Source of the DNA: Bdellovibrionales bacterium
Lineage (GTDB): Bacteria > Pseudomonadota > Alphaproteobacteria > UBA9219
Assembly (NCBI GenBank): GCA_041649025.1
Contig: JBAZNY010000004.1
Location: 26,705-90,704 of the forward strand
Reading direction: 5' to 3'
Length of the DNA: 64,000 nt
Shown here: positions 2,410 to 45,525 of the stretch, piece by piece
Numbering within the stretch: position 1 is the stretch's first letter
Layout of the letters: each line of letters starts with the position of its first letter
Notes under the pieces: generated by a model
Seen by the model: only the letters and a program-made list of their open reading frames with translations
Databases searched by the model: none
Told to the model about the DNA's origin: nothing
Position numbers and translations under genes: made by a program

Positions 2410-3696
2410 CTAATCCTTCAGCATTTCGGCAATCATTATCTTCTGTTCAGCATCAAAGCGAGTGCCTTCTATAATGGTGAAAGTTAAATCGCTATCCGTT
2501 AAATCCGCTCCCTCAAGATTGGCATAAGACAGGTCGGTATTGTTAAGATTAACCTGACGAAGCCGCGCGCCTGAAAGATTGGCGTACCGTAAATTGGCAT
2601 TTGTCAGATTGGACGTGATTGTCCTGCCTTGCGGAGAAATAAGGGGTTCGAAATGCGCGTCGCGCAAATCCGCGTTGGTAAGGCGCGTCCCGACCATATC
2701 GACGCCGCGAAAATCCGCCTTAAAAGCGGAAACATGGCGCATATCCGAGTTGCTGAGAAAAGCAGCCTGCATCTGGGATTCCGTCAAGTCCAGGCCGTAT
2801 AGAATGGCTCCTTCGGCATTGACCAGCGCAAGATGCGCATAAGCAAAAATTTTGGTTCCGCGCATGTCGTGGTTGCTAATATCGAGCTGTTTGCCCAGCG
2901 TTCCGTCCGAAGAAACCCACGCCGTATGTTTGCGTAAAAGATCCTCGAGCGACTCCGATAAATCCTTTGCCGTCGGCCCTAAAGGCAAATTGGTCATCGC
3001 ATTAAGCAAGTTCGCCTGTTGCAGACTCGCAATGTTGAGCGCTGCGTTCACAAGAACGGCGCCGCGCATGTTGACTCTTGTCAGATCGCACTGGCTAAGG
3101 TCGGCGCCTTCAAGATTGGCTCCGGAAAAATCCGATCCTTCGAGGCGCGCGCGAACGATTTTGCAGCCGCACATGGTCGTGTCGCTAAACTTCGTGCCGA
3201 CGGCAACGGCGCCGGACAAACGCGCATCGGTCAAATTCGCGCCGCTGAAATCCGCGCCACCGGCCTCCGATGCAGGCCAATCTTTGTGCAAGGGAACAAT
3301 ATCCCCGTCAGCCTCCGTTCCAGCCAACATTCCCTCGCGCAGGTCGGCTCCGGCCAAATCCGCGGCAATCAGATTAGCGCCGCGCAAACAAGCCCCTCGC
3401 AAATCGGCGCGCATCAGATGAGCGCCCTGTAAATTACAAAAGCGCATATCCGCGCCAAAGAAATTGCAATAATCAAGCATAGCCCCGGATGCGTTGGCGC
3501 GGTTCAGAGAAACGCCCGTCATATCGGCATATGAAAGATCCAAACCCGAAATATTGAGGCCGGATAAATTGTGGCGAGACAATACGGCCCGCGCCCCGCC
3601 CACGCGCGCAGATAGAAACATCGAATGCTTGCGCACAATGGCGTCCAGTTCATCCTGCGTGGTTTCAATGAGTCGTGAATTTTCTTCGTGATCCAT
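2410..3696 (-). CDS. Pentapeptide-repeat protein (428 aa, dozens of A(D/N)LxG-type repeats)
   Basis: Long run of tandem pentapeptides (ANLSGANLEGADLSQCDLTRVNMRGAVL...); no signal peptide. Confidence 0.85.
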   Translation of the reverse strand: MDHEENSRLIETTQDELDAIVRKHSMFLSARVGGARAVLSRHNLSGLNISGLDLSYADMTGVSLNRANASGAMLDYCNFFGADMRFCNLQGAHLMRADLRGACLRGANLIAADLAGADLREGMLAGTEADGDIVPLHKDWPASEAGGADFSGANLTDARLSGAVAVGTKFSDTTMCGCKIVRARLEGSDFSGANLEGADLSQCDLTRVNMRGAVLVNAALNIASLQQANLLNAMTNLPLGPTAKDLSESLEDLLRKHTAWVSSDGTLGKQLDISNHDMRGTKIFAYAHLALVNAEGAILYGLDLTESQMQAAFLSNSDMRHVSAFKADFRGVDMVGTRLTNADLRDAHFEPLISPQGRTITSNLTNANLRYANLSGARLRQVNLNNTDLSYANLEGADLTDSDLTFTIIEGTRFDAEQKIMIAEMLKD

Positions 3697-9306: not shown

Positions 9307-10035
9307 TTACGCAGCGCATTTTTCCATCTTTATTGATTTGTCGCTTTGTCGTGTGCTAGGTTCGATGTCGAACGTTTTCACTGCAATTCTAAGATTGTCT
9401 TTAAAACAAAATCCGCCAACGCCGTTTGACAGCAATTCCATAGCCTTCATTCGCATTCCCGGATGAATGTCCGCCGCCCCAGAGTCCTGATAAAGCGGCA
9501 CGTAGCCAGAAATTTCTTCTAACAAAAAGTTCCGTGATAATGATAGCCGCGCGGATCCAAATTCTTCGCCCCTCTTGAGACAACGCTGAGCAAACTCATT
9601 TAAATCATGGTCAACCGCTTCAGAAAACTCTTTGTTATTTTCATAAAGGGCACAAACTCGCTGAAAGACCTCCGGATAGCGCGGATGAGACAGCAGACTA
9701 TCCCATCGAACAACATCGATAAAAACATCAGAAGAGAAAACGTTAGCCTTCAACCATAAATCCCCGTCGTTTAGCGCCTTTTTATAAGCATCTTCTGGAG
9801 ACAGCCCAATAGACATTAAATTGTAACGCTGTATTGTATCGTGCAAACAAAGCGTAACATCGTTGAAATTCTGCATTACCCAATTAAGGATGCTTCTTGT
9901 GCGCGGATCAAAGGTTGGATTAGAGGGCACACTGATTTGCAGGCGCGCAGACGCATATCTCTGCCAGCCCATAGCATGACGCAAAATAATCTTATAATTC
10001 CCACGAGCAACAACTTGATTATTCGTATTTTTCAT
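9307..10035 (-). CDS. Uncharacterised 242-aa protein in AT-rich islet; downstream partner of the HTH protein
   Basis: AT-rich codon usage unlike flanking genes; start overlaps the upstream gene's 3' end by 17 nt (translational coupling); no recognisable catalytic motif. Weak Rx6H (RWDSLLSH) and weak CDPS-like IS..N..F and Y178 patterns were noted but are not convincing. Confidence 0.6.
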   Translation of the reverse strand: MKNTNNQVVARGNYKIILRHAMGWQRYASARLQISVPSNPTFDPRTRSILNWVMQNFNDVTLCLHDTIQRYNLMSIGLSPEDAYKKALNDGDLWLKANVFSSDVFIDVVRWDSLLSHPRYPEVFQRVCALYENNKEFSEAVDHDLNEFAQRCLKRGEEFGSARLSLSRNFLLEEISGYVPLYQDSGAADIHPGMRMKAMELLSNGVGGFCFKDNLRIAVKTFDIEPSTRQSDKSIKMEKCAA

Positions 10036-10657
10036 TTGTGTTAGATCCCTTTGGACTTTTCGCTTGTGACCAAACTAAATCAAAAAAATTCTTATTTGCT
10101 TGTGCAATAGCCTTGTCATGAACAACTATAACTTTCTGAAAATCTTCAGTCAGGTATGCGCATATATCATCAAAAAAAACCGAAGCTGCGTTTTGGTAAT
10201 AACGTGACGGGATTTGACGATACCAATCTAGCGGACCTCGAATATGGTTGTTGCCCTCTTTGATTAGCTTTTTATATTTTATGCCTTTCCTTACAATTCG
10301 CTTAAAAGCTTCATGTACTTCCTGAGGAGAAAGGGACTCATCTGCCATACAGACAAAAAATTCTTCTCCTTTTTGCAACTGATAATAGATTTCATCTAGC
10401 AATAGCGCATAGCAATTTGGGCCATCTATTTCTCGAACTTTATGGTCATAAAGACGAACACCTTGGTTTTCTGTAAATTCAATTCCCTTCTCTCTAAAAA
10501 CTTTCATAATATCCGCAATCGTTCCTTCCCTCGGTTGGACGGAGCCGTCTTCGATTTTGCTGATGCCTTGTTTGGTAAGACCCGCTGCATTGGCCAGATC
10601 GTCCTGGCTCATGTCCAGAAGGGCGCGCGCGGCGCGTATTTGTCTGCCTGTAATCAT
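10019..10657 (-). CDS. XRE-family helix-turn-helix protein with about 145-aa C-terminal domain of unknown function
   Basis: MITGRQIRAARALLDMSQDDLANAAGLTKQGISKIEDGSVQP...GIEF is a canonical XRE HTH; start set at the ATG at 10655-10657 with GGTGG upstream. The ORF-track N-terminal extension is rejected. Confidence 0.7.
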   Translation of the reverse strand: MITGRQIRAARALLDMSQDDLANAAGLTKQGISKIEDGSVQPREGTIADIMKVFREKGIEFTENQGVRLYDHKVREIDGPNCYALLLDEIYYQLQKGEEFFVCMADESLSPQEVHEAFKRIVRKGIKYKKLIKEGNNHIRGPLDWYRQIPSRYYQNAASVFFDDICAYLTEDFQKVIVVHDKAIAQANKNFFDLVWSQAKSPKGSNTNEKYE

Positions 10658-10854
10658 CCTAACCACCAAATCCAAAAAGTGTGCACTGCACCAAAAGCGT
10701 ATTAGGGATACTATATATATATGAAAGTAAATCAATGTCAATTTATAGTAGACAAAAGTCTCTTTTTCGGGTATAACTCATATATAGATAGGGCAATTAT
10801 ATTCAGGTTATTGATTTTAAAGGATTTTTTCGAATCTATTTTGGAGAAGACGGA

Positions 10855-11028
10855 ATGCCTGATTTTTATAAATATATGATGCGCTACGGCGAACACGGCG
10901 TTCAAGCTATTGTTGAAAACGTTGAGCGTAGCCAAGGCATCCGTCACGAAACACCGGTTCCGTTGGAACACCGTTGGAACCACGTCATGCAGGACACCCG
11001 ATCAGAACAATCCAGCATGGCGGCGTAA
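10855..11028 (+). CDS. Small hypothetical protein (57 aa), divergent from the HTH gene
   Basis: ATG preceded by GGAGAAGACGGA; divergent AT-rich promoter region 10658-10854; no homolog recognised. Confidence 0.3.
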   Translation: MPDFYKYMMRYGEHGVQAIVENVERSQGIRHETPVPLEHRWNHVMQDTRSEQSSMAA

Positions 11029-11115
11029 ATAGACTGCAAAAATAGGGGCAAGTTGAAGCCCCTTTTTGTTAACCGGAATTAAATTATTAAAACAAATTAA
11101 GCAACGCGAGACACT

Positions 11116-11355
11116 ATGGCAACGAAAACACCGCAATCAAACATCGACAGCACGGCTCCGATCAACAACCTTGAGCTCGCGTCGATTAAATCTCTTTTAG
11201 CCTATACCGCTTATGACAAGCATGTCAGCGAAGCCGTCGTCCGCGACGTGTTTTCTTCCCGCTTTGGCGTTAATGAAGTCGAAAAGCTGCCGCGTAAGTC
11301 ATTTGAAGATGCCATCCGCTTCTTGGTCGATATTCAGATCGAGATGATTCACTAA
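11116..11355 (+). CDS. Small hypothetical protein (79 aa)
   Basis: ORF with plausible helical sequence, follows the 57-aa ORF on the same strand; weak SD. Confidence 0.35.
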   Translation: MATKTPQSNIDSTAPINNLELASIKSLLAYTAYDKHVSEAVVRDVFSSRFGVNEVEKLPRKSFEDAIRFLVDIQIEMIH

Positions 11356-11414: not shown

Positions 11415-11490
11415 GGGCCTGTAGCTCAGTTGGGAGAGCGCAACAATGGCATTGTTGAGGTCGTCAGTTCGATCCTGATCAGGTCCACCA
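11415..11490 (+). tRNA. tRNA-Ala (anticodon GGC)
   Basis: Cloverleaf GGGCCUG..; G3:U70 alanine identity pair; anticodon loop AUGGCAU; TUCGAUC T-loop; encoded CCA. Confidence 0.93.
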
Positions 11491-11770
11491 CTTCTTTATT
11501 TCTGCGTTTTTCATGTTTGCGCGCTTGCGCCGCTTCGCGGCTCAGCGACGCGGGGGCATTGTTGAGGTCGTCAGTTCGATCCTGATCAGGTCCACCACTT
11601 CTTTATTTCTGCGTTTTTCATGTTTGCGCGCTTGCGCCGCTTCGCGGCTCAGCGACGCGGGGGCATTGTTGAGGTCGTCAGTTCGATCCTGATCAGGTCC
11701 ACCACTTCTTTATTTCTGCGTTTTTCATGTTTGCGCGCTTGCGCCGCTTCGCGGCTCAGCGACGCGGGGG
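11450..11770 (+). repeat. Tandem array, 3 x 107 bp: each unit is tRNA-Ala nt 36-76 (41 nt) plus 66 nt of downstream flank, with a truncated fourth start
   Basis: Units at 11450-11556, 11557-11663 and 11664-11770 are essentially identical; the first unit is the 3' part of the intact tRNA. Confidence 0.9.
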
Positions 11771-14440: not shown

Positions 14441-14456
14441 TGGCATAAAGCTTGCT
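14441..14456 (+). promoter_or_regulatory. Sigma54-type promoter (TGGCAT-N5-TTGCT) upstream of flgE
   Basis: Matches -24/-12 consensus TGGCAC-N5-TTGCW; lies about 60 nt upstream of flgE start. Confidence 0.55.
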
Positions 14457-14518
14457 GATACCCGTCTGAGATTATTCACCCTGCCCTTTTGGGGCGGAAT
14501 CAACAGACGAGGTATACA

Positions 14519-15904
14519 ATGTCTCTTTTCGGAGCTCTTAACGTCGCCGTTTCCGGTCTTAACGCGCAATCGCAATGTATCGGCAATATCGCAGACAATT
14601 TGTCAAACGCCCAAACGACCGGCTTTAAATGTATTGGCACGACGTTTTCGGACTTGGTGACCGCATCAAGCGCGACGTCCAACAGCCCTGGCGGCGTAAG
14701 AGCGACGCCTAGCTATCAAAACGACGTTCAAGGCAACATCGGGTCAACGGCAACGACAACCAATCTGGCCATTTCCGGCACCGGATATTTTACCGTTACG
14801 ACAGCAACGCAGGATGCCACGGGACAAACCATCTTCACGGGGTCGAATTATTACAGCCGTGCAGGCGATTTTACGCTCAATAAAGAAGGTTATATGGTGA
14901 ATAGCTCCGGTTACTTTTTGCAGGGTTATACCATTACAGGCTCTGCTGTTGATACGTCAGGCGTATCTCCGATTCTCATATCTTCGCTGCTCGACAACCC
15001 AGAAGCGTCAACGACCATCACCTATGTCGGCAATTTGCCCGCCGGCGTGACGGACTATACATCAGCAGCATCGACCGTCGATGTGTATGACGCTTTAGGA
15101 AGCACGCATCAAACCAGCATCACGTGGGAAACAACGGCGACAACGAACGTTTGGTTGGCAACAGTCACCGTCGATGCCGGCGGTGATATTATCGCGCCGG
15201 ATACTTATAACTACATCGCCACCTTTGAAGTGGCTTTTAACAGCTCCTCACCTGCTGGTACTATTCAGACAATTACGGGCATTTCTTCCGGTTATTATGT
15301 ATCTACAGATGATACCCATGCCCTTACGACGGATCTTGGCGTTCCTGAAGTCAGCACCGATACAGCAGGCCAGCCGGCCATAGTCTATCTTGGCGGCGCG
15401 GCAGGCGACCTGCATTTTCCAGGCGCCGGAACTCAAACGATCAACTTCAATCTCGGAAATTACAGCGTAGCAACCGGACTGACGCAGTACGCAAATTCAA
15501 CGTCAACCGTCTCCGTGTCGTCGATTTCCCAAGATGGTCTAGGAGAAGGCTCTTTCAGCAGCATCAGTATCGACAAAGACGGCATCGTTTCGATTAACTA
15601 CACGAACGGCAGCGTTCGTAAAATCTATCAGATTCCGCTTGCGGCGTTCAATTCCCCGGACAATCTGCAACGCGGCTCCGGCGGCGTTTATAACGCAACC
15701 ATCGCTTCGGGCCCCGCGAACTTGCACTTGGCAGGAACCAATGGAACGGGAACCATCGCTAGCGGATCTCTTGAAGCGTCAACCGTCGATATCGCGAGCG
15801 AATTCACGACGATGATTCAGTCGCAGCAGGTTTACTCCGCAAACGCCAAGATGGTGTCGGCCGTCAACAGTATGTTGAGCACGATCATTCAGGCCGTTCA
15901 GTAA
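14519..15904 (+). CDS. flgE: Flagellar hook protein FlgE
   Basis: N-terminus MSLFGALNVAVSGLNAQSQ..NIADNLSNAQTTGFK (rod/hook N-domain); C-terminus STVDIASEFTTMIQSQQVYSANAKMVS (flagellar basal-body C-domain); GAGG SD before ATG 14519. Confidence 0.8.
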   Translation: MSLFGALNVAVSGLNAQSQCIGNIADNLSNAQTTGFKCIGTTFSDLVTASSATSNSPGGVRATPSYQNDVQGNIGSTATTTNLAISGTGYFTVTTATQDATGQTIFTGSNYYSRAGDFTLNKEGYMVNSSGYFLQGYTITGSAVDTSGVSPILISSLLDNPEASTTITYVGNLPAGVTDYTSAASTVDVYDALGSTHQTSITWETTATTNVWLATVTVDAGGDIIAPDTYNYIATFEVAFNSSSPAGTIQTITGISSGYYVSTDDTHALTTDLGVPEVSTDTAGQPAIVYLGGAAGDLHFPGAGTQTINFNLGNYSVATGLTQYANSTSTVSVSSISQDGLGEGSFSSISIDKDGIVSINYTNGSVRKIYQIPLAAFNSPDNLQRGSGGVYNATIASGPANLHLAGTNGTGTIASGSLEASTVDIASEFTTMIQSQQVYSANAKMVSAVNSMLSTIIQAVQ

Positions 15905-15962: not shown

Positions 15963-17423
15963 ATGTCAATAGCTGGCGCTCTTTCCGTCGCTCTCTCGGG
16001 GATGCAGGTAAGTTCCACGGCCGTGCAAACCATATCGGGAAACGTTGCCAACGCCCAAACGGCTAATTATACCCAAAAAAATATCAGCCTGGCACCCGTC
16101 ACTACGGGATCGTCGTTGGGTGGCGTCACGATCACAGGCTATACCCGCGTGACGAACGACGTCCTTTTTACGACGCTTAATAACGCGACATCGGACGCTT
16201 CTTATTACAGCACTCAGAGCAACTATCTTAGTCAAGTCCAGTCAATCCTTAATTCAATCGGCAATCCTCCCGCGCTTTCCGGAGACTTGGGCGATTTTCA
16301 GGCGGCTTGGACGCAGTATGCCGCCGACCCCAGCAACTCCACATTGGAAAAAAACGTCGTCTCCACAGGACAAGCGCTTGCGAACACGATCAGCAGCATC
16401 GCTGCGGATATTTCGACTTTGGAAACAAACACTAAAAACGATCTTTCAACGTCAATTTATTCGCTGAATTCCACTTTGAAGACAATTCAGGAGTTGAACA
16501 TTCAAATTACCTCGGCTCTTTCCAATAATCAGCCGACCGTCAATCTGGAAGATGAGCGTGACACCGCGATTAACATGATCGCTTCGTTCACGAATGTCGT
16601 CGTCATGCAGCGCGATAACGGGCAAATTGCGCTTTATACTCCCACCGGCACAGCCCTTCTCGACCATCAAGCGCAGACTTTCAACGTCGGCCCGGAAGGC
16701 AACACCGTTGTCAATTCCGCAGGATCCGATATCACAGATTCATTAGCGGGCGGGACATTACAGGCTCAAACCGATTTTCTTGCTTCGACAGCAACCGCTT
16801 CCAACGGCGTCGGGGTTATCGTAAAATTAAAATCCCAGTTGCAGAATTTCGCCAACATGTTCGTCGCAACAACGGCGGACGGAAACAGTTTCGCGGACGT
16901 CTATAACGCCGCCGCCACAGAAGCCGGCGAACAGGCATCGAGTTTCTTCACTGCAAATGTAGATTTTAACGGCTTGCCGAATCTGACAAGTTTTTCCGTC
17001 AATGCCGACCTTATCAGCGGAGCGACAACCGTTAAGTCGGCGGCTGCCGTTGATATCAACGACGCTTTTTCCGCAACGGATATTGCCATTACGACGACGG
17101 ATATGGGCGGCGGCGTTTTTACCTATAATACAAGCAGCACGTTTTCGTCGGATGGCCTGATAACTCAATCGCAAACTTATTCCGGCATTGTTACGGCAAT
17201 ATTGTCCGGATTCCAACAAGCGGCAAACACCGTTAAAGCCCAATATGAAACGGCTGCAACACAACAAGAATATTATCAAAGCTCTCTCTCCAGCCAAACG
17301 GGCGTTAATACGGACACCGAGCTGGTCAATCTGACCAATTGGGAAAATAGCTATGCCGCGTGCGCGCACTTAATTTCAACGATTAAAGAAATGATGAAAA
17401 TACTGGAAGGCATGGTGACCTAA
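15963..17423 (+). CDS. flgK: Flagellar hook-associated protein 1 FlgK
   Basis: N-terminus LSGMQVSSTAVQTISGNVANAQTANYTQK; C-terminus NLTNWENSYAACAHLISTIKEMMKILEG matches the FlgK terminal helices. Confidence 0.8.
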   Translation: MSIAGALSVALSGMQVSSTAVQTISGNVANAQTANYTQKNISLAPVTTGSSLGGVTITGYTRVTNDVLFTTLNNATSDASYYSTQSNYLSQVQSILNSIGNPPALSGDLGDFQAAWTQYAADPSNSTLEKNVVSTGQALANTISSIAADISTLETNTKNDLSTSIYSLNSTLKTIQELNIQITSALSNNQPTVNLEDERDTAINMIASFTNVVVMQRDNGQIALYTPTGTALLDHQAQTFNVGPEGNTVVNSAGSDITDSLAGGTLQAQTDFLASTATASNGVGVIVKLKSQLQNFANMFVATTADGNSFADVYNAAATEAGEQASSFFTANVDFNGLPNLTSFSVNADLISGATTVKSAAAVDINDAFSATDIAITTTDMGGGVFTYNTSSTFSSDGLITQSQTYSGIVTAILSGFQQAANTVKAQYETAATQQEYYQSSLSSQTGVNTDTELVNLTNWENSYAACAHLISTIKEMMKILEGMVT

Positions 17424-18400
17424 TGAGCATAACGTCCATCAGCAATTTAAGTATTGTAAGGAACTTGACGTCAGCGCTTCAAAATCAGCAGTTATCCTTG
17501 TCCGAGCTGTCCAGCCAGCTTGCGACCCAGAAAAAACATACCGATTTGACGGATTACAGCGCCAACGATGCCCGTAATTTGATCGATCTGCAAGCCGCTG
17601 GGACACAATGCGATGCGTATATCAGCGTCATTGCAACCGCAAGCACAAATCTGTCCATTTATGACACGATCATGACGGATTTGGAGGAAATCATTTCTCA
17701 AGCGCAAAGCCTTGCAAACAACAACCCGACCTACACCGAGGACATTGCCTCAAACGTCCTTATACAAACCAATAATTATTTGAAATCCGTTACCGTCGAT
17801 CTTAATCAAACGATCAACGGGCGCTATATTCTTTCAGGATCCCGCTACAACACACAGCCCGTTCAGGATTTGTCCGCGCTTCCTTTATCTACTCTCGACA
17901 CAACCATTTATACCGATAATTTGACTTTGCCGAGTTACGATACGGAATTCGTCGAGGGCGCAGGTTCGACAAGCGCTACCGCATACACCACGGATCGGGC
18001 GATGATTGACGATGGATATATCGTCGATTATGGCATTACCAGCAACGACCCCGCTATTCAGAAGGTTGTCATGGGGCTGCGTTATCTGCAGGCGGCAGGA
18101 AATTCCACCGACACCGCGACTTATAAAAGCAACATGACCCAGGCTTCCACATTGCTGGCTTCCGGGTTGGCTCAAATCCAGAATTTACACACGAACATAG
18201 CGAACAATGTTAACGTGATGGCTATGGAAAAAGAGGCTCAAAAAACAGAAATTTCAAATTTAACGGATCGAGTCTCAAATATTCAGCAGGTTGATACGAC
18301 GGAGATCGCGATCAAAATAACCTCGTTTCAGTCCGTTCTTCAAGCTTCCTACTCTGCGACGGGAAGCATATTAAAAATGTCGATTGTAAATTATCTCTAG
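17423..18400 (+). CDS. flgL: Flagellar hook-associated protein 3 FlgL
   Basis: Flagellin-like N- and C-terminal helices; 325 aa; immediately follows flgK with TAATG overlap. Confidence 0.75.
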   Translation: MSITSISNLSIVRNLTSALQNQQLSLSELSSQLATQKKHTDLTDYSANDARNLIDLQAAGTQCDAYISVIATASTNLSIYDTIMTDLEEIISQAQSLANNNPTYTEDIASNVLIQTNNYLKSVTVDLNQTINGRYILSGSRYNTQPVQDLSALPLSTLDTTIYTDNLTLPSYDTEFVEGAGSTSATAYTTDRAMIDDGYIVDYGITSNDPAIQKVVMGLRYLQAAGNSTDTATYKSNMTQASTLLASGLAQIQNLHTNIANNVNVMAMEKEAQKTEISNLTDRVSNIQQVDTTEIAIKITSFQSVLQASYSATGSILKMSIVNYL

Positions 18401-18424
18401 TCCAATCCTTAGAAGGAGTTTATC

Positions 18425-19960
18425 ATGGAGTCTCTTCCCGGATATCAATGTTCATGGGGTTCTGGTATGAAGCCACTTTCGACTTTTAGTCCTATTTCCT
18501 TACGTTATATCGCGGCCTTACGCGGCAACAGGCCTAAAAAGACAGGAGTCGAGTTTGCCTATGCCGACGTATCCTGTTCCTCGCCTGAAAATTTTATTTG
18601 CCTTGCGGCGAGCAATCCTGAGGGACGCTTTTATGGTTTTGTACCCGACGACACAGCGCGCCAAACGGCTGAAGAAGCCGCTGCGCAACGCGGCACTTTC
18701 AATGTTATCTTTTTGACGGGAACTCCTTCTGAAATTCTGGCGCGAATTGCCAATGGTTCATCCCTGCCGCCGATGCTTGATTATTTGTGTTGCGACGAAA
18801 GCGTCACTCCCCTTATAGCCTCCGAGCGTTCCGCGCTTTTCGACCTGGCGCAGAAACGCCTTAATCCCGGAGGATTGTTTGTTTCGTCCTATCGCGCCTA
18901 CGATCGCGAAGACGGAGCTTTGCGCTTTCTTGTGCAGGAATTGGCGCCGGAGATGGATTCCGAGCAAAAACAGGATTTTCTGACCGAGATAAAAACTTTG
19001 GGGTCTACTTATTTTGCCCGGCATTCCGACACGGCAAAGGCTTTGGATCAAGCCATCGCCAAAAACGCGCCGAGGGATTTTTTCTCCCTTTATGACGGCA
19101 CGGCTGCGACATCAAAGACGTTCGATACAATGGTCGCCGCAGGATCACATGGATTACTTTATGCCGGAGATGCAATCTTGGCATCAAACTATGTCGAATT
19201 GGCAATTCCGCATGAGGCTCAGGATTTGGTCGTTTCTTGCCGCAACAGCCCTCTCTATGAACCCATCAAGGACTTTACGCTTGACCGCGCGGTTCGTCAG
19301 GATATTTGGATTAAGGCTCCTTGCGAGCAATCGGTCAGCCCCGCAGAGCTTTTTGGCGGGTTTGCCTATGGCATCGTTCTGCCGCGCGAACAAATCCCTA
19401 CCGCTTATACTGCAAAAGGAAAAACGATTGATTTGTCGAGTCCGCTTTACGACAAGCTTCTCAATCTGATGGTTCTCATGCCCATTGGCGTAGGCGATGT
19501 TCTCGTATATCCCTCCTGTCGCGGCGAAGAACCGGAAAAAATTCTCGAAGCCTTTCAGCTTCTCGTTGCGTGCGGTTTTGCAAGCCCGATGCGCGGCGTC
19601 ATGACCTCAAATAACAATTCCGATGTTTCTCAATCGCGTCTTGTCGGTAATTATAATCGCTTTCTCGATAAAACAAGCCTGACGGATCAGGATGTTTTGT
19701 TCGCCTCGCAAGTTACAGGGTGCGGCGTCGTTTTGCCTGCGCGAGAAGCCTTTGTGATGCAGGCTATTAATCGCGTGGGCCTTAACGACTCGGTCGCGGC
19801 TCTTATGATGGAATTGCAACGCATCGCCCATACGCCTGCCGCGTTATCCATTATTGAAACCGAAGAGCCAACGGCAGAAATTGCGCATGCGATGATTATC
19901 GATATTGTCGGAAAATCGTTGCCCCAGTGGTACGCCTATGCCCTTTTGGAGGCCGCCTGA
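18425..19960 (+). CDS. Methyltransferase-like protein with C-terminal regulatory-type domain (511 aa); motif I appears degenerate
   Basis: AGGAG SD. Motif-III-like RLNPGGLFVSS is present but there is no GxGxG. Overall architecture recalls MTase plus MTase-regulatory-domain proteins. Position right after flgL suggests flagellar modification. Confidence 0.45.
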   Translation: MESLPGYQCSWGSGMKPLSTFSPISLRYIAALRGNRPKKTGVEFAYADVSCSSPENFICLAASNPEGRFYGFVPDDTARQTAEEAAAQRGTFNVIFLTGTPSEILARIANGSSLPPMLDYLCCDESVTPLIASERSALFDLAQKRLNPGGLFVSSYRAYDREDGALRFLVQELAPEMDSEQKQDFLTEIKTLGSTYFARHSDTAKALDQAIAKNAPRDFFSLYDGTAATSKTFDTMVAAGSHGLLYAGDAILASNYVELAIPHEAQDLVVSCRNSPLYEPIKDFTLDRAVRQDIWIKAPCEQSVSPAELFGGFAYGIVLPREQIPTAYTAKGKTIDLSSPLYDKLLNLMVLMPIGVGDVLVYPSCRGEEPEKILEAFQLLVACGFASPMRGVMTSNNNSDVSQSRLVGNYNRFLDKTSLTDQDVLFASQVTGCGVVLPAREAFVMQAINRVGLNDSVAALMMELQRIAHTPAALSIIETEEPTAEIAHAMIIDIVGKSLPQWYAYALLEAA

Positions 19961-21540
19961 GCCAGAACTTTCAGGAATTAGCAGGTAAAGCAGCACGAGC
20001 TCACGCTCAAGGAAAGCTCGATCTCGCGGCGGGGCTTTGCCGCGAGATTCTTTCGGGCGAGCCGCATGATCCTAACGCTCTCCATATGTTGGGCATCATC
20101 GCGCAACAAGAAGGAAAATCAGAACTCGCGTTGCAATGGATCGACGCCGCTCTGACGGCAAAACCTAATTTTCTTGAGGCGCGGTATAATCGCAGCGTCA
20201 TTTTGCGCGCCCTTCAACGCAATGCCGAAGCTCTCCAATCCATTCGCAAAATACTGGAAGCCGCGCCGGATTTTGCCGTAGCCTGGGATATGGCCGGACA
20301 AATTCTCAAAGATGACGGCGCTTTTGCCGAGGCTACCAAATGCTATACCCGCGCGGTGAATTTTCAGCCAAATAACGCCAATTTTCTTGGCAATTTCGGC
20401 TTATTGCTTTTCTCGCAGGGGGATTTGTCTGCCGCCTATAAAATGGCGCGTAAAGCTGAAACCCTTGATCCTTCCTATCCGCCCATGCTGTTAGGCAATA
20501 TTCTGAGGGCATGGGGTCATCCGGAAGAAGCTGCAGTTTGTTTTGCTCGCGTTCACACTTTGCTACCCCATTTTGCCGACGCCTATGCCAGCGAAGCCAT
20601 GGCACGTTTACAAATGGGAGATATTGAAGAAGGATTCGCCTTATGGGAAAAGCGCCCCGATCTTTCTTCGGATCCGAGCAAACTGCCCTTATGGCAGGGA
20701 CAGAAAGTTTCTGCTCTTATGCTCTACGAAGATCAGGGTCTGGGCGACGCCATTCAGTATCTTCGCTATATCCCCTTGCTTAAAAAACGCGCGGATTATT
20801 TAACTTTGCGTTTGAGAGAACCCCTTGTGGATTTATGCGAAATAAATTTTCCGGATGTCGGCGTTTTCCGGGAAAATGAGATGGAACCTTTGGCTGAAGC
20901 GCGGTGCCGCCTGTCAAGTCTGCCTTTCTTTTTTGAAACCCGTCTGCATAACATTCCTCCCGCACCTTATCTTACGGCACCTAAGGGAAATCCATGGCGC
21001 GATCGACTATACAAGATTCCTTCTCCGCGCATCGGCCTTGTCTGGGCAGGCAACGCGAAATTCGGCAACGACGCGACGCGTTCTATCGATTTTTCCACTT
21101 TGAATCCCCTGCTTTCCTGCGGGGCGGCACATTTTGTGTCTCTTCAAAAAGACCGTTCCGACAACCCTTCGGCACCCGGTATCTTTGACGCCGCCTCGCA
21201 ACTGGACAATTTTGCCGATACCGCCGCGCTCATCGATGAGCTTGATCTCGTCATTACCGTCGATACGGCAACCGCCCATTTGGCCGGTGCTTTGGGTAAA
21301 CCTGTTTTCGTTCTACTGCCCTTTAACGGCGATTGGCGCTGGCTTTTGGAACGCGAAGATAGTCCTTGGTACGGCACGGCACGATTGTTTCGCCAGAAAA
21401 AACTCGGCGATTGGGGCGATGTACTTGCCCGGGTATCCATTGAAGTTCAAAAGTTTATCGATGGAGACAGAAGCGTTCTGAAGGCTTCCCCCTGGAAAGG
21501 CAAAAATTTGCGTCAAAACCCGAACGCGGTGCCGATATAA
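19927..21540 (+). CDS. TPR-repeat protein fused to a GT9-family (heptosyltransferase-fold) glycosyltransferase domain; FlmG-like candidate flagellin glycosyltransferase
   Basis: N-terminal TPR repeats; C-terminal domain with GLGDAIQYLRYIPLL and VITVDTATAHLAGALGKPVFVLLPF, paralleling the GNDSGLMHLAAALGVP motif of the GT9 fragment at 1-246. Confidence 0.6.
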   Translation: MVRLCPFGGRLSQNFQELAGKAARAHAQGKLDLAAGLCREILSGEPHDPNALHMLGIIAQQEGKSELALQWIDAALTAKPNFLEARYNRSVILRALQRNAEALQSIRKILEAAPDFAVAWDMAGQILKDDGAFAEATKCYTRAVNFQPNNANFLGNFGLLLFSQGDLSAAYKMARKAETLDPSYPPMLLGNILRAWGHPEEAAVCFARVHTLLPHFADAYASEAMARLQMGDIEEGFALWEKRPDLSSDPSKLPLWQGQKVSALMLYEDQGLGDAIQYLRYIPLLKKRADYLTLRLREPLVDLCEINFPDVGVFRENEMEPLAEARCRLSSLPFFFETRLHNIPPAPYLTAPKGNPWRDRLYKIPSPRIGLVWAGNAKFGNDATRSIDFSTLNPLLSCGAAHFVSLQKDRSDNPSAPGIFDAASQLDNFADTAALIDELDLVITVDTATAHLAGALGKPVFVLLPFNGDWRWLLEREDSPWYGTARLFRQKKLGDWGDVLARVSIEVQKFIDGDRSVLKASPWKGKNLRQNPNAVPI

Positions 21541-21624: not shown

Positions 21625-21948
21625 ATGTCTCATACATCGATGATTATTAGCGGCCTCATTCTCGTCGCTCTGGTACTCTTCGTTTCGCCCAGCATAATCG
21701 CGATCAATCGCGGCCGCATTTTGCGCAATGTTGCTTTGTGGCTTGCCCTCTTTCTCGGTTTGGCGCTGTTCTATCAAACTTTCGGGCCTGACAGTCCCCG
21801 TCCGTTGTTTCAGTTGCCTGACTCGATGGTGGGAATGGGCGAACAAGCCAAACCCTCCACGGATGTTCCCGACGCTGCGAATACCAAAGAAGACAACAAG
21901 AACAACGTCGATACCGGAGAGACCGGCTTTACGCCTCCGAAAGAGTAG
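21625..21948 (+). CDS. Small membrane protein (two predicted TM helices)
   Basis: GAGGA SD; hydrophobic segments IISGLILVALVLFV and VALWLALFLGLALF; the antisense ORF 21313-21957 is considered a shadow. Confidence 0.45.
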   Translation: MSHTSMIISGLILVALVLFVSPSIIAINRGRILRNVALWLALFLGLALFYQTFGPDSPRPLFQLPDSMVGMGEQAKPSTDVPDAANTKEDNKNNVDTGETGFTPPKE

Positions 21949-44412: not shown

Positions 44413-44497
44413 GTAACTAACCCGGGGTGCCCCCTTGACTGGGGGCTGAGATTATACCCGTAGAACCTGATCTGGGTCATGCCAGCGAAGGGAGAGG
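44413..44497 (+). ncRNA. TPP riboswitch (THI-box)
   Basis: ACUAACCCGGGGUGCCC..GGCUGAGAUUAUACCCGUAGAACCUGAUCUGGGUCAUGCCAGCGAAGGGAGAGG matches the conserved GGGGUGCC, CUGAGA, ACCUGAUCUGG(A/G)U(A/C)AUGCCAGCG and AGGGA blocks; the SD GGGAGAGG sits in the 3' pairing region. Confidence 0.9.
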
Positions 44498-44499
44498 TC

Positions 44500-45525
44500 A
44501 TGAGCGGCGATGCGCGCCTGTGTTCGCGTACAAATTCTACATCTTTTTGCCGAAGTTTCTTCGATTCCCCGCAACCTGCGGGGCGCAAAATTACGGCGGG
44601 ATTTACGTACCTGCAGCGCATCGGAAAAGCGGCGACTTATGACGTCTGGTTTCCGGAAGATTTGCGGCAAGAGCTTGATGCGCGATTGGCTCGCGGACAG
44701 CAAATCGGCGCGGAACATTTTGCCTCGCAATGGGCGGCAGTGCGCCAATTCGAGCTGTTGCATGAGTCCGGCAATCATAAAATTTACGATCTCGATCCCG
44801 AGTTGTTACAACGGGCGATGCTGGATCTCTCTCGCAGCATGCGCGCGGGAGGATACCGCATTACAGTAGCCACATTGGGCCGTTATGAAGAAACGAGTTC
44901 CGGCGATGAGCTTGAAATTCTTGACCATCATTTGCAGGAAGGCATCGCGCAGATGATTCATATGCTTTACCTCGAGGAAGAGAGCGCGAAGGCGAACGCC
45001 GAAAATGACGCGCACCTCTATACCAGCCAGTGGGATTATTGTCAGGACTTGCCGCACATAGGGATGGTTTTAGGAGCCGGAGACGTATTCCAAAGGTATT
45101 CTGACAACACGGAAGAATACATTCTGCCTAAGCGCAGGAAAAAAGGCGAAAAAAAAGGCGGCACAGGCACAATCTCGCCTGCCGCCAAACGGCATAAACT
45201 GGCGCGGCAGTTTTTCGATATTCTCAATAAGCTGCCCCAAAACCATATCGTTCACGACACAGCCGTGGGTTTGCAATTGCCGGAATTGAACGGCGAAAAC
45301 CAATGGAACTATATTGCCGATTCCGAAGAGACGCTGCTTTCTTTCAATCGTGTGCTGAGCAACATATTCGACAAATTCGACGGCGTTAATTTGGCGCGCC
45401 TGAACGGGGATGAAAACGCACGCGATGAAATTAAGGCATCCACCCTTCATATGCGCGGATATGGAGACCGCATGAACGAAAGCAGCGAAGGATTTTATCG
45501 CCGCGCGTCGTTGGCGTTAAACTGA
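44500..45525 (+). CDS. Uncharacterised 341-aa soluble protein under TPP-riboswitch control
   Basis: ATG at 44500 is 2 nt after the SD GGGAGAGG. The upstream ATG at 44479 lies inside the riboswitch conserved block, so it is rejected as the start. Lys-rich linker PKRRKKGEKKGGTG; no recognisable Thi-enzyme motif. Confidence 0.6.
   Translation: MSGDARLCSRTNSTSFCRSFFDSPQPAGRKITAGFTYLQRIGKAATYDVWFPEDLRQELDARLARGQQIGAEHFASQWAAVRQFELLHESGNHKIYDLDPELLQRAMLDLSRSMRAGGYRITVATLGRYEETSSGDELEILDHHLQEGIAQMIHMLYLEEESAKANAENDAHLYTSQWDYCQDLPHIGMVLGAGDVFQRYSDNTEEYILPKRRKKGEKKGGTGTISPAAKRHKLARQFFDILNKLPQNHIVHDTAVGLQLPELNGENQWNYIADSEETLLSFNRVLSNIFDKFDGVNLARLNGDENARDEIKASTLHMRGYGDRMNESSEGFYRRASLALN

Follow-up and report, generated by a model that had tools for sequence, protein, structure and literature searches.

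What is the function of a protein with a methyltransferase fold and of a glycosyltransferase when both are encoded directly behind flagellar hook genes? This question is raised by a 64-kb stretch of DNA from a Bdellovibrionales bacterium (contig JBAZNY010000004.1, 64,000 nt, hereafter the window), in which flgE, flgK and flgL are followed by two open reading frames (ORFs), ORF-A (511 aa) and ORF-B (537 aa). By modelled fold and by homology ORF-A belongs to the protein-lysine methyltransferase (PKMT) family, and its residues for binding S-adenosylmethionine (AdoMet) are lost. ORF-B joins tetratricopeptide repeats (TPR) to a domain that resembles glycosyltransferase family 9 (GT9). The reading that we prefer, with a probability of about 0.45, is that the two proteins form a cytoplasmic accessory pair for flagellar export substrates, ORF-B glycosylating them and ORF-A binding them without catalysis. 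The locus links a TPR-heptosyltransferase-type protein and a decayed PKMT-fold protein to the flagellum across an uncultured Micavibrio-like lineage.

ORF-A and ORF-B lie in a conserved block behind flgL

The initial annotation had placed the two ORFs on the plus strand right after flgE-flgK-flgL, with a Shine-Dalgarno sequence ahead of ORF-A and a 34-nt overlap between them, and every one of these details was found (Table 1). The genes flgE, flgK, flgL, ORF-A and ORF-B are tightly packed on the plus strand at 14.4–21.6 kb of the window. From flgK through ORF-B, neighbouring genes overlap or are at most 24 nt apart: the flgL ATG and the flgK stop codon share one base, and ORF-A starts 24 nt past the flgL stop. 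Ahead of the first TPR helix of ORF-B the only canonical start is the GTG at 19927, which gives the 34-nt overlap; an alternative in-frame CTG at 19957, behind GGAGG, would leave an overlap of 4 nt. The likely true start of flgE is the ATG at 14519 (461 aa in the public gene call). About 60 nt 5′ of this ATG lies a predicted sigma54-type element, which matches TGGCAC-N5-TTGCW, the consensus of late flagellar genes in Alphaproteobacteria. A consensus scan revealed no convincing terminator inside the flgE-to-ORF-B block. As far as the sequence can tell, the five genes are probably a single, sigma54-dependent late flagellar operon of Micavibrio-like Alphaproteobacteria. No other flagellar genes were found in the 64-kb window.

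The arrangement was then compared across relatives, with one genome per species, which gave 51 loci with a family-level ORF-A homologue; genes were annotated by local phmmer. In 47 of the 49 loci with upstream DNA, flgL was immediately 5′ of ORF-A. A TPR-GT9 gene, at times in two copies, was immediately 3′ of ORF-A in 23 of the 43 loci with enough downstream DNA. The block recurs in dozens of species, and its gene arrangement is far from chance. The genes that flank the flgEKL-A-B block vary from locus to locus, so that the five-gene block itself is the conserved unit. A conserved flagellar-operon pair, as had been proposed from the window alone, is thus borne out by synteny over species-representative loci.

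The position behind flgL is held by family members down to ∼30% identity. An exhaustive profile search placed P0263 (locus L069) and P0270 (L071) on the deepest branches, and both keep the order flgE-flgK-flgL-A-B. The deepest branches thus carry the A-B pair, which argues that the pair is ancestral behind flgL and that some crown-group members subsequently lost or relocated ORF-B. In the close relative L004/L005 the neighbourhood is exactly that of the window, but ORF-B is missing.

All 51 loci come from metagenome-assembled genomes (MAGs) of uncultured Micavibrio-like Alphaproteobacteria. Their contigs are labelled Micavibrio, Rhodospirillaceae or Alphaproteobacteria, and NCBI places Micavibrio under Bdellovibrionales. 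Cultured Micavibrio are predatory. No cultured host was recovered: when a MAG protein labelled Micavibrio served as the query of a family search, only MAG or metagenome proteins came back.

Two ideas about the block were rejected. A role of ORF-A as substitute for the alphaproteobacterial flaF and flbT after flgL does not fit L069, where both genes adjoin the A-B pair on the opposite strand. The glycosyltransferase is not the core flagellar partner, because ORF-A is linked to flgL more tightly (47/49) than ORF-B is to ORF-A (23/43). In close relatives, with or without ORF-B, the 3′ side of the block also keeps a 107-aa ORF (21625–21948 in the window) that has two hydrophobic segments and no Pfam match.

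ORF-A has the fold of a protein-lysine methyltransferase

The AlphaFold2 (AF2) model of ORF-A, built from a 53-sequence alignment, reached a predicted local distance difference test score (pLDDT) of 90.3 and a predicted template modelling score (pTM) of 0.88. Its best matches in the PDB, over the full length, were Rickettsia PKMT1 and PKMT2 (5dnk/5dpl; Foldseek E 3e-17, template modelling score 0.62–0.64, ∼535 aligned columns), and the model shows the four-domain PKMT fold with its AdoMet, dimerisation, middle and C-terminal domains. The same proteins were reached by sequence: the ORF-A family profile matched PKMT1 (E 1e-9) and PKMT2 (E 1.5e-7) in the PDB across the AdoMet and dimerisation domains. 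A single-sequence search of ORF-A against PDB sequences gave no match, and PKMT1/2 emerged only with the family profile and the fold search.

The Pfam profiles named in the initial annotation, MethyTransf_Reg in ORF-A and Glyco_transf_9 and TPR in ORF-B, all matched. In the Pfam scan of ORF-A, MethyTransf_Reg (PF10119) stood alone, with no Methyltransf_* family, and PF10119 is present in 53 of the 53 family members. The family is compact: an exhaustive profile search gave ∼30 clusters at 50% identity, all above 320 bits, and below them the scores fall to ∼185 bits, the level at which canonical PKMT-like proteins of ∼515 aa set in by the thousands. The mean column identity of 59% indicates that ORF-A is under selection. 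The motif LAASNPEG was considered as a mark of the ORF-A family and rejected, because a canonical Pseudomonas peli methyltransferase carries it too.

The AdoMet site has decayed in the crown group

The class I AdoMet motif I (E/D-x-G-x-G-x-G) is absent from ORF-A. Across the 53 family members, glycine occupies the three Gly positions in only 6, 0 and 2 sequences, and proline takes the third in 39. The columns of the motif I loop are among the most variable of the family (maximal residue frequency 0.26–0.45 vs. a mean of 0.62). In RpPKMT1, Asp102 and His146 make critical hydrogen bonds to AdoMet (KmtA paper, PMC11784438). Neither residue has its counterpart in ORF-A, where V73 and D124 stand at the equivalent places (Table 1). 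A Methyltransf_31 match in Pfam is weak, occurs in only 10 of the 53 members and is nowhere convincing. As a positive control, the canonical P. peli relative matched nine Methyltransf_* families.

Outside the crown group the site is better preserved. The nearest outgroup proteins all retain ELGCGxG, the Asp and the His, and ELGCGxG is also present in the P. peli protein. The deep branches P0263 and L054 retain GCG-x-G/A and the Asp, but not the His. P0263 (L069, 6001–10034), which lies after flgL and ahead of a TPR-GT9 gene, has an AdoMet motif that can still be recognised and matches Methyltransf_31 in Pfam; its sequence makes it a good candidate for the ancestral, still-active form.

These data suggest that (i) the description of ORF-A as methyltransferase-like is right for the fold, but activity is less likely, since the Gly-rich loop and both AdoMet hydrogen-bonding residues are absent; (ii) with the AdoMet residues lost and the rest of the protein conserved, ORF-A may now act without catalysis; and (iii) as its cofactor site lacks the diagnostic residues, ORF-A should not be classed among the methyltransferases. 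Under its database name, "Methyltransferase regulatory domain-containing protein", both the kinship with PKMT and the probable loss of activity go unseen. We consider ORF-A most likely to be a pseudo-methyltransferase kept for binding, by about two to one over an active enzyme with a remodelled site. The synteny and the way in which the active site decays through the tree are solid and unusual results.

ORF-B combines a TPR superhelix with a GT9-like domain

The AF2 model of ORF-B (pLDDT 92.1) shows TPR helices followed by a two-lobed Rossmann-like domain. Many TPR families of Pfam matched aa ∼17–240. The Glyco_transf_9 profile (PF01075) matched aa 428–460 with 24.5–25.5 bits (cutoff 22), a match that covers 33 of its 247 positions, and it was found in 27 of 28 orthologous GT domains. 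Searches with the whole protein retrieved SPINDLY and O-GlcNAc transferase (OGT), that is, the architecture of a TPR superhelix with a GT-B protein glycosyltransferase. The likeness to these GT41 enzymes is carried by the TPR part, whereas the catalytic domain matches GT9 structures; no Pfam GT41 match was found in ORF-B. In a structural comparison the GT domain was closest to solved GT9 structures, namely Veillonella GT9 (3tov, score 17.4), E. coli WaaF (1psw, 17.4), the autotransporter heptosyltransferase TibC (4rap, 16.4) and WaaC (2h1f, 16.1).

Two conserved elements may correspond to active-site elements of GT9 enzymes. In the first, EDQGLGD (Table 1), Q270, G271, G273 and D274 do not vary among 53 homologues, and D274 stands at what we take, by topology and not by alignment, to be the place of the catalytic Asp13 of heptosyltransferase I. 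In the second, the putative sugar-nucleotide motif VITVDTATAHLAGALGKPV, hhalign aligns D446 with Asp261 of WaaC; conservation reaches at least 90% at D446 and T447 and is complete at H451. Asp13 and Asp261 are functional residues of WaaC.

The domain was nevertheless distant from known enzymes in sequence. The profile of the ORF-B GT domain gave no match among PDB sequences, and homology to characterised heptosyltransferases did not extend over the full length. The GT9 assignment of the initial annotation stands on the PF01075 match and the structural neighbours, but sequence homology to bona fide heptosyltransferases is limited to ∼40 residues. The motif had also been said to match closely that of a truncated lipopolysaccharide (LPS)-type heptosyltransferase at positions 1–246 of the window, which carries VGNDSGLMHLAAALGVPTVGLFG. 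The two do resemble each other, but only 9 of 19 residues are identical and the likeness is confined to the motif. From sequence and model, the ORF-B domain looks catalytically competent and GT9-like, as a very distant member. The LPS-type heptosyltransferase fragment suggests that the organism makes ADP-heptose.

Comparison with known systems

Rickettsia PKMT1/2 and Acinetobacter KmtA share with ORF-A a ∼510-aa four-domain fold with PF10119. Like ORF-A they are cytoplasmic, and their genes lie beside those for large exported surface proteins. ORF-A differs from PKMT1/2 in having no equivalents of the Gly-rich loop, Asp102 and His146, so that its catalysis is doubtful, and it sits in a flagellar operon, whereas PKMT1/2 and KmtA sit with their autotransporter or adhesin substrates. 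To our knowledge, bacterial PKMT-type lysine methyltransferases have been described only for OmpB and AtaA.

In the literature consulted here, flagellin glycosyltransferases fall into two classes, Maf (GT-A) and FlmG (TPR and GT-B). In FlmG of Caulobacter and Brevundimonas, flagellin is bound by the TPR domain, and the choice of sugar lies with the GT-B domain (PMC7591256; bioRxiv 10.1101/2022.03.25.485807). The parallel with FlmG, which had been drawn from the window, holds in architecture, with a flagellin-binding TPR domain at the N-terminus and GT-B at the C-terminus (PMC7591256). FlmG and ORF-B are both soluble proteins of ∼540–600 aa with this domain order, and both belong to an alphaproteobacterial flagellar gene set. 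The GT domain of ORF-B is GT9-like; FlmG is likened to it by described architecture alone, its domain being termed just "GT-B". The sugars transferred by FlmG are pseudaminic or legionaminic acid, and its reported range is limited to Caulobacterales; no genes for these nonulosonic acids were found in the 64-kb window.

The autotransporter heptosyltransferases (BAHTs) TibC and Aah (4rap) have no TPR domain, whereas ORF-B has one, and the identity is ∼13%. BAHTs are iron-containing dodecamers, to judge by the title under which PMC7591256 cites Lu et al. (2014). Unlike the genes for TibC and Aah, ORF-B has no autotransporter near it in the window. [quoted passage not shown] LPS heptosyltransferases are without TPR domains.

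In Shewanella, GlfM works with Maf-2 as a non-catalytic, cis-encoded specificity factor that bridges flagellin and its glycosyltransferase, and in Maf-1 a TPR domain captures flagellin (bioRxiv 10.1101/2023.12.03.569772). Maf is a GT-A enzyme and GlfM a small bundle of four helices; ORF-B has its own TPR domain and does not obviously require an adaptor. A literature search found no paper that ties PF10119/PKMT-like or TPR-GT9 proteins to a flagellar hook operon, and none that combines flagellin, GT9 and TPR. The nearest case is the flagellin glycosylation island of Dickeya zeae, which contains MethyTransf_Reg proteins (PMC9650423).

A proposed cytoplasmic accessory pair for flagellar export substrates

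In the proposed mechanism the TPR superhelix of ORF-B would capture an axial flagellar protein before export, flagellin in the first place, with FlgK, FlgL and FlgE as alternatives. The GT9-fold domain would then O-glycosylate Ser/Thr residues from a nucleotide sugar in the cytoplasm, ADP-heptose being the default guess from the fold. For FlmG such a mechanism has been demonstrated by experiment (PMC7591256; bioRxiv 10.1101/2022.03.25.485807), as has the part of the TPR domain for Maf-1 (bioRxiv 10.1101/2023.12.03.569772). An active PKMT-type protein-lysine methyltransferase would have been recruited behind flgL, with the TPR-GT9 gene as its neighbour. Its AdoMet-binding residues would have decayed in the crown group, to which the window belongs, the remaining 500-aa four-domain protein staying strongly conserved, and ORF-A may now bind the same flagellar protein or proteins as adaptor or holdase, with or without ORF-B. 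FlgE, FlgK and FlgL are rich in Ser and Thr (23–27% together) and poor in Lys (1–3%), a composition that fits glycosylation better than lysine methylation; this is a weak point in favor of the mechanism.

A more specific version, which we regard as improbable, would make ORF-A the first pseudo-methyltransferase in flagellar assembly: it would clamp unfolded flagellin or hook-associated proteins and hand them to ORF-B or regulate their export, and ORF-B would heptosylate them. The part given to ORF-A would then be that of GlfM. If this version is true, the classes Maf and FlmG would be joined by a third class of glycosyltransferase for flagellar proteins, based on GT9. Confirmation of the main reading would add a new glycosyltransferase fold for flagellar modification, possibly with a new flagellar sugar, and a clear natural case of an enzyme turned into a binding protein inside a defined assembly pathway.

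Several observations weigh against an accessory pair of this kind. The 64-kb window has no flagellin gene and no sugar-nucleotide pathway, so that substrate and donor are guesses. Since about half of the genomes have no ORF-B adjoining ORF-A, some function of ORF-A must be independent of an adjacent ORF-B. With >7900 matches the ORF-B family is huge, and many of its paralogues lie away from flagellar genes, e.g., in Azospirillum. Against E. coli K-12 proteins, hhalign gave a probability of 68% for WaaC (38 columns) and of 39% for WaaF, and only 38–42 columns align. The former AdoMet region of ORF-A is partly conserved (C51 85%, P54 74%, D124/E125 89%) and could be a remodelled site; the loss of consensus AdoMet residues is no proof of lost binding. 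Finally, every family member comes from an uncultured MAG.

Those conserved residues are one of the grounds for supposing that ORF-A is still active, with a remodelled cofactor site, and that the pair is a double-modification module in which ORF-A methylates lysines of flagellin or hook-associated proteins, or the glycan added by ORF-B. Its analogues would be PKMT1/2 on OmpB, KmtA on AtaA and FliB on Salmonella flagellin. The full PKMT fold, the significant homology, the weak Methyltransf_31 matches that persist in some members, the Gly loop and Asp retained by deep-branch members at the same position and the MethyTransf_Reg proteins of the D. zeae island (PMC9650423) all speak for this alternative. 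Nevertheless, we find it rather unlikely: no crown-group member has kept the Gly-rich loop or the equivalents of Asp102 and His146, the loop columns rank among the most variable of the family, a proline has taken the place of the third glycine, and the neighboring axial proteins are poor in Lys.

The tighter tie of ORF-A to flgL than to ORF-B, and the L004/L005 neighbourhood that matches the window without ORF-B, would also be expected if ORF-A were an export chaperone or regulator independent of glycosylation (FlgN-like for FlgK/FlgL, or a checkpoint factor), with ORF-B as an optional add-on that has its own target; pseudoenzymes often retain substrate binding. This seems doubtful to us and has a low probability, because the A-B pair is present on each of the deepest branches, so that A and B arrived jointly, the flagellar chaperones known so far are small and helical rather than 500-aa four-domain proteins, and L069 has separate flaF and flbT genes. 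We give still less weight to a pair unrelated to flagellar proteins, in which ORF-B would glycosylate some other protein or a glycolipid and ORF-A would be a passenger, both riding on the flgEKL transcript. The TPR-GT9 family is indeed very large, most of its paralogues (Azospirillum, Burkholderia) lie away from flagellar genes, and the GT9 fold is best known from the synthesis of the LPS core. However, neutral hitch-hiking does not explain a post-flgL position that is kept to ∼30% identity in many contexts; neither ORF-A nor ORF-B has a signal peptide or membrane segment, as read from sequence; and the TPR domain sets ORF-B apart from the LPS heptosyltransferases.

ORF-B homologues in other bacteria

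Most copies of the ORF-B family, those in Azospirillum and Burkholderia being examples, are not beside flagellar genes, and the family is also present in Ralstonia. On Azospirillum chromids (e.g., NZ_CP007794.1), up to ten sites per replicon match the GT9-like domain of ORF-B with 38–46% identity. By sequence, this is a large, uncharacterised expansion of TPR-GT9 paralogues.

Two Ralstonia loci were annotated within this analysis. On the megaplasmid of R. solanacearum Po82 (L067, 2634–9906), a 556-aa TPR and GT homologue of ORF-B lies ∼3.5 kb downstream of fliK, which puts the ORF-B family near flagellar genes in Betaproteobacteria too. On that of R. solanacearum T98 (L066, 3348–9810), three genes lie in a row: the first encodes an autotransporter (1013 aa), the next a TPR-sulfotransferase (700 aa), and directly after them comes the gene for a TPR-less homologue (387 aa) of the ORF-B GT9-like domain. 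Such an arrangement is reminiscent of the autotransporter heptosyltransferases TibC and Aah with their substrates, with sulfation as a possible extra step.

Features of the block and of the rest of the window

The features of the flgE-to-ORF-B block are collected in Table 1.

Table 1. Genes, domains and sequence elements of the flgE-flgK-flgL-ORF-A-ORF-B block, in window positions
Feature	Positions	Strand	Basis or remark
Sigma54-type -24/-12 promoter element, TGGCAT-N5-TTGCT	14441-14457	+	Read from sequence; predicted
flgE, flagellar hook protein	14489-15904	+	NCBIfam FlgE E 1.8e-105; Pfam FlgE_D2, Flg_bbr_C, Flg_bb_rod
flgK, hook-associated protein 1	15963-17423	+	TIGR02492 flgK_ends E 9.5e-64; Pfam FlgK_D1
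flgL, hook-associated protein 3	17423-18400	+	TIGR02550 flagell_flgL E 3.3e-23; weak Flagellin_C match
Shine-Dalgarno AAGGAG of ORF-A	18413-18418	+	6 nt before ATG 18425; read from sequence
ORF-A, 511 aa, PKMT-fold protein with degenerate AdoMet site	18425-19960	+	Model, Foldseek, profile, synteny
AdoMet motif I position, ORF-A aa 46-56, YADVSCSSPEN, no glycine	18560-18592	+	Aligned to PKMT1 LELGCAAGGN
V73 of ORF-A, equivalent of PKMT1 Asp102	18641-18643	+	Alignment; acidic in 0/53 members
D124 of ORF-A (LCCDES), equivalent of PKMT1 His146	18794-18796	+	Alignment; His 0/53, Asp 47/53
MethyTransf_Reg domain PF10119, ORF-A aa 235-297	19127-19315	+	Pfam 38.9 bits, cutoff 25.5
ORF-B, 537 aa, N-terminal TPR superhelix and C-terminal GT9-fold glycosyltransferase (putative)	19927-21540	+	Pfam, model, synteny
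Seven TPR-type repeats, 14 helices, ORF-B aa 15-240	19969-20646	+	Model
GT-B catalytic domain of GT9 type (predicted), ORF-B aa ∼255-520	20689-21486	+	Model
EDQGLGD, ORF-B aa 268-274, beta1-loop-helix "GD"	20728-20748	+	Strand-then-helix placement from model
GT9 sugar-nucleotide motif VITVDTATAHLAGALGKPV, ORF-B aa 442-460	21250-21306	+	hhalign vs. WaaC/WaaF

The remaining genes of the window are housekeeping genes (mutL, pgi, trigger factor, bamA, addAB, lptFG, yidC, pckG and others). A perfect three-copy tandem repeat of 107 bp (11448–11770) begins inside tRNA-Ala(GGC) (11415–11490). Its unit consists of the 3′ ∼43 nt of the tRNA and 64 nt downstream, so that two extra tRNA 3′ halves follow the gene; the repeat could be an att-site duplication from an integrative element. 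Just upstream of this tRNA, a stretch of low GC content (9307–11355, 0.456 vs. ∼0.51) contains a cyclodipeptide-synthase-like ORF on the minus strand (9307–10035; PF16715, E 1.6e-7), overlapped by a helix-turn-helix regulator on the same strand (10019–10741), and small ORFs. The stretch may be a small genomic island.

A thiamine pyrophosphate (TPP) riboswitch (Rfam RF00059, 70 bits; 44413–44512) lies directly ahead of a 348-aa ORF with no Pfam match (44479–45525), which may encode an uncharacterised thiamine-related transporter or enzyme. Between mutL and pgi, positions 2410–3696 encode a 428-aa protein that consists nearly entirely of pentapeptide repeats (PF00805, E 6e-60).

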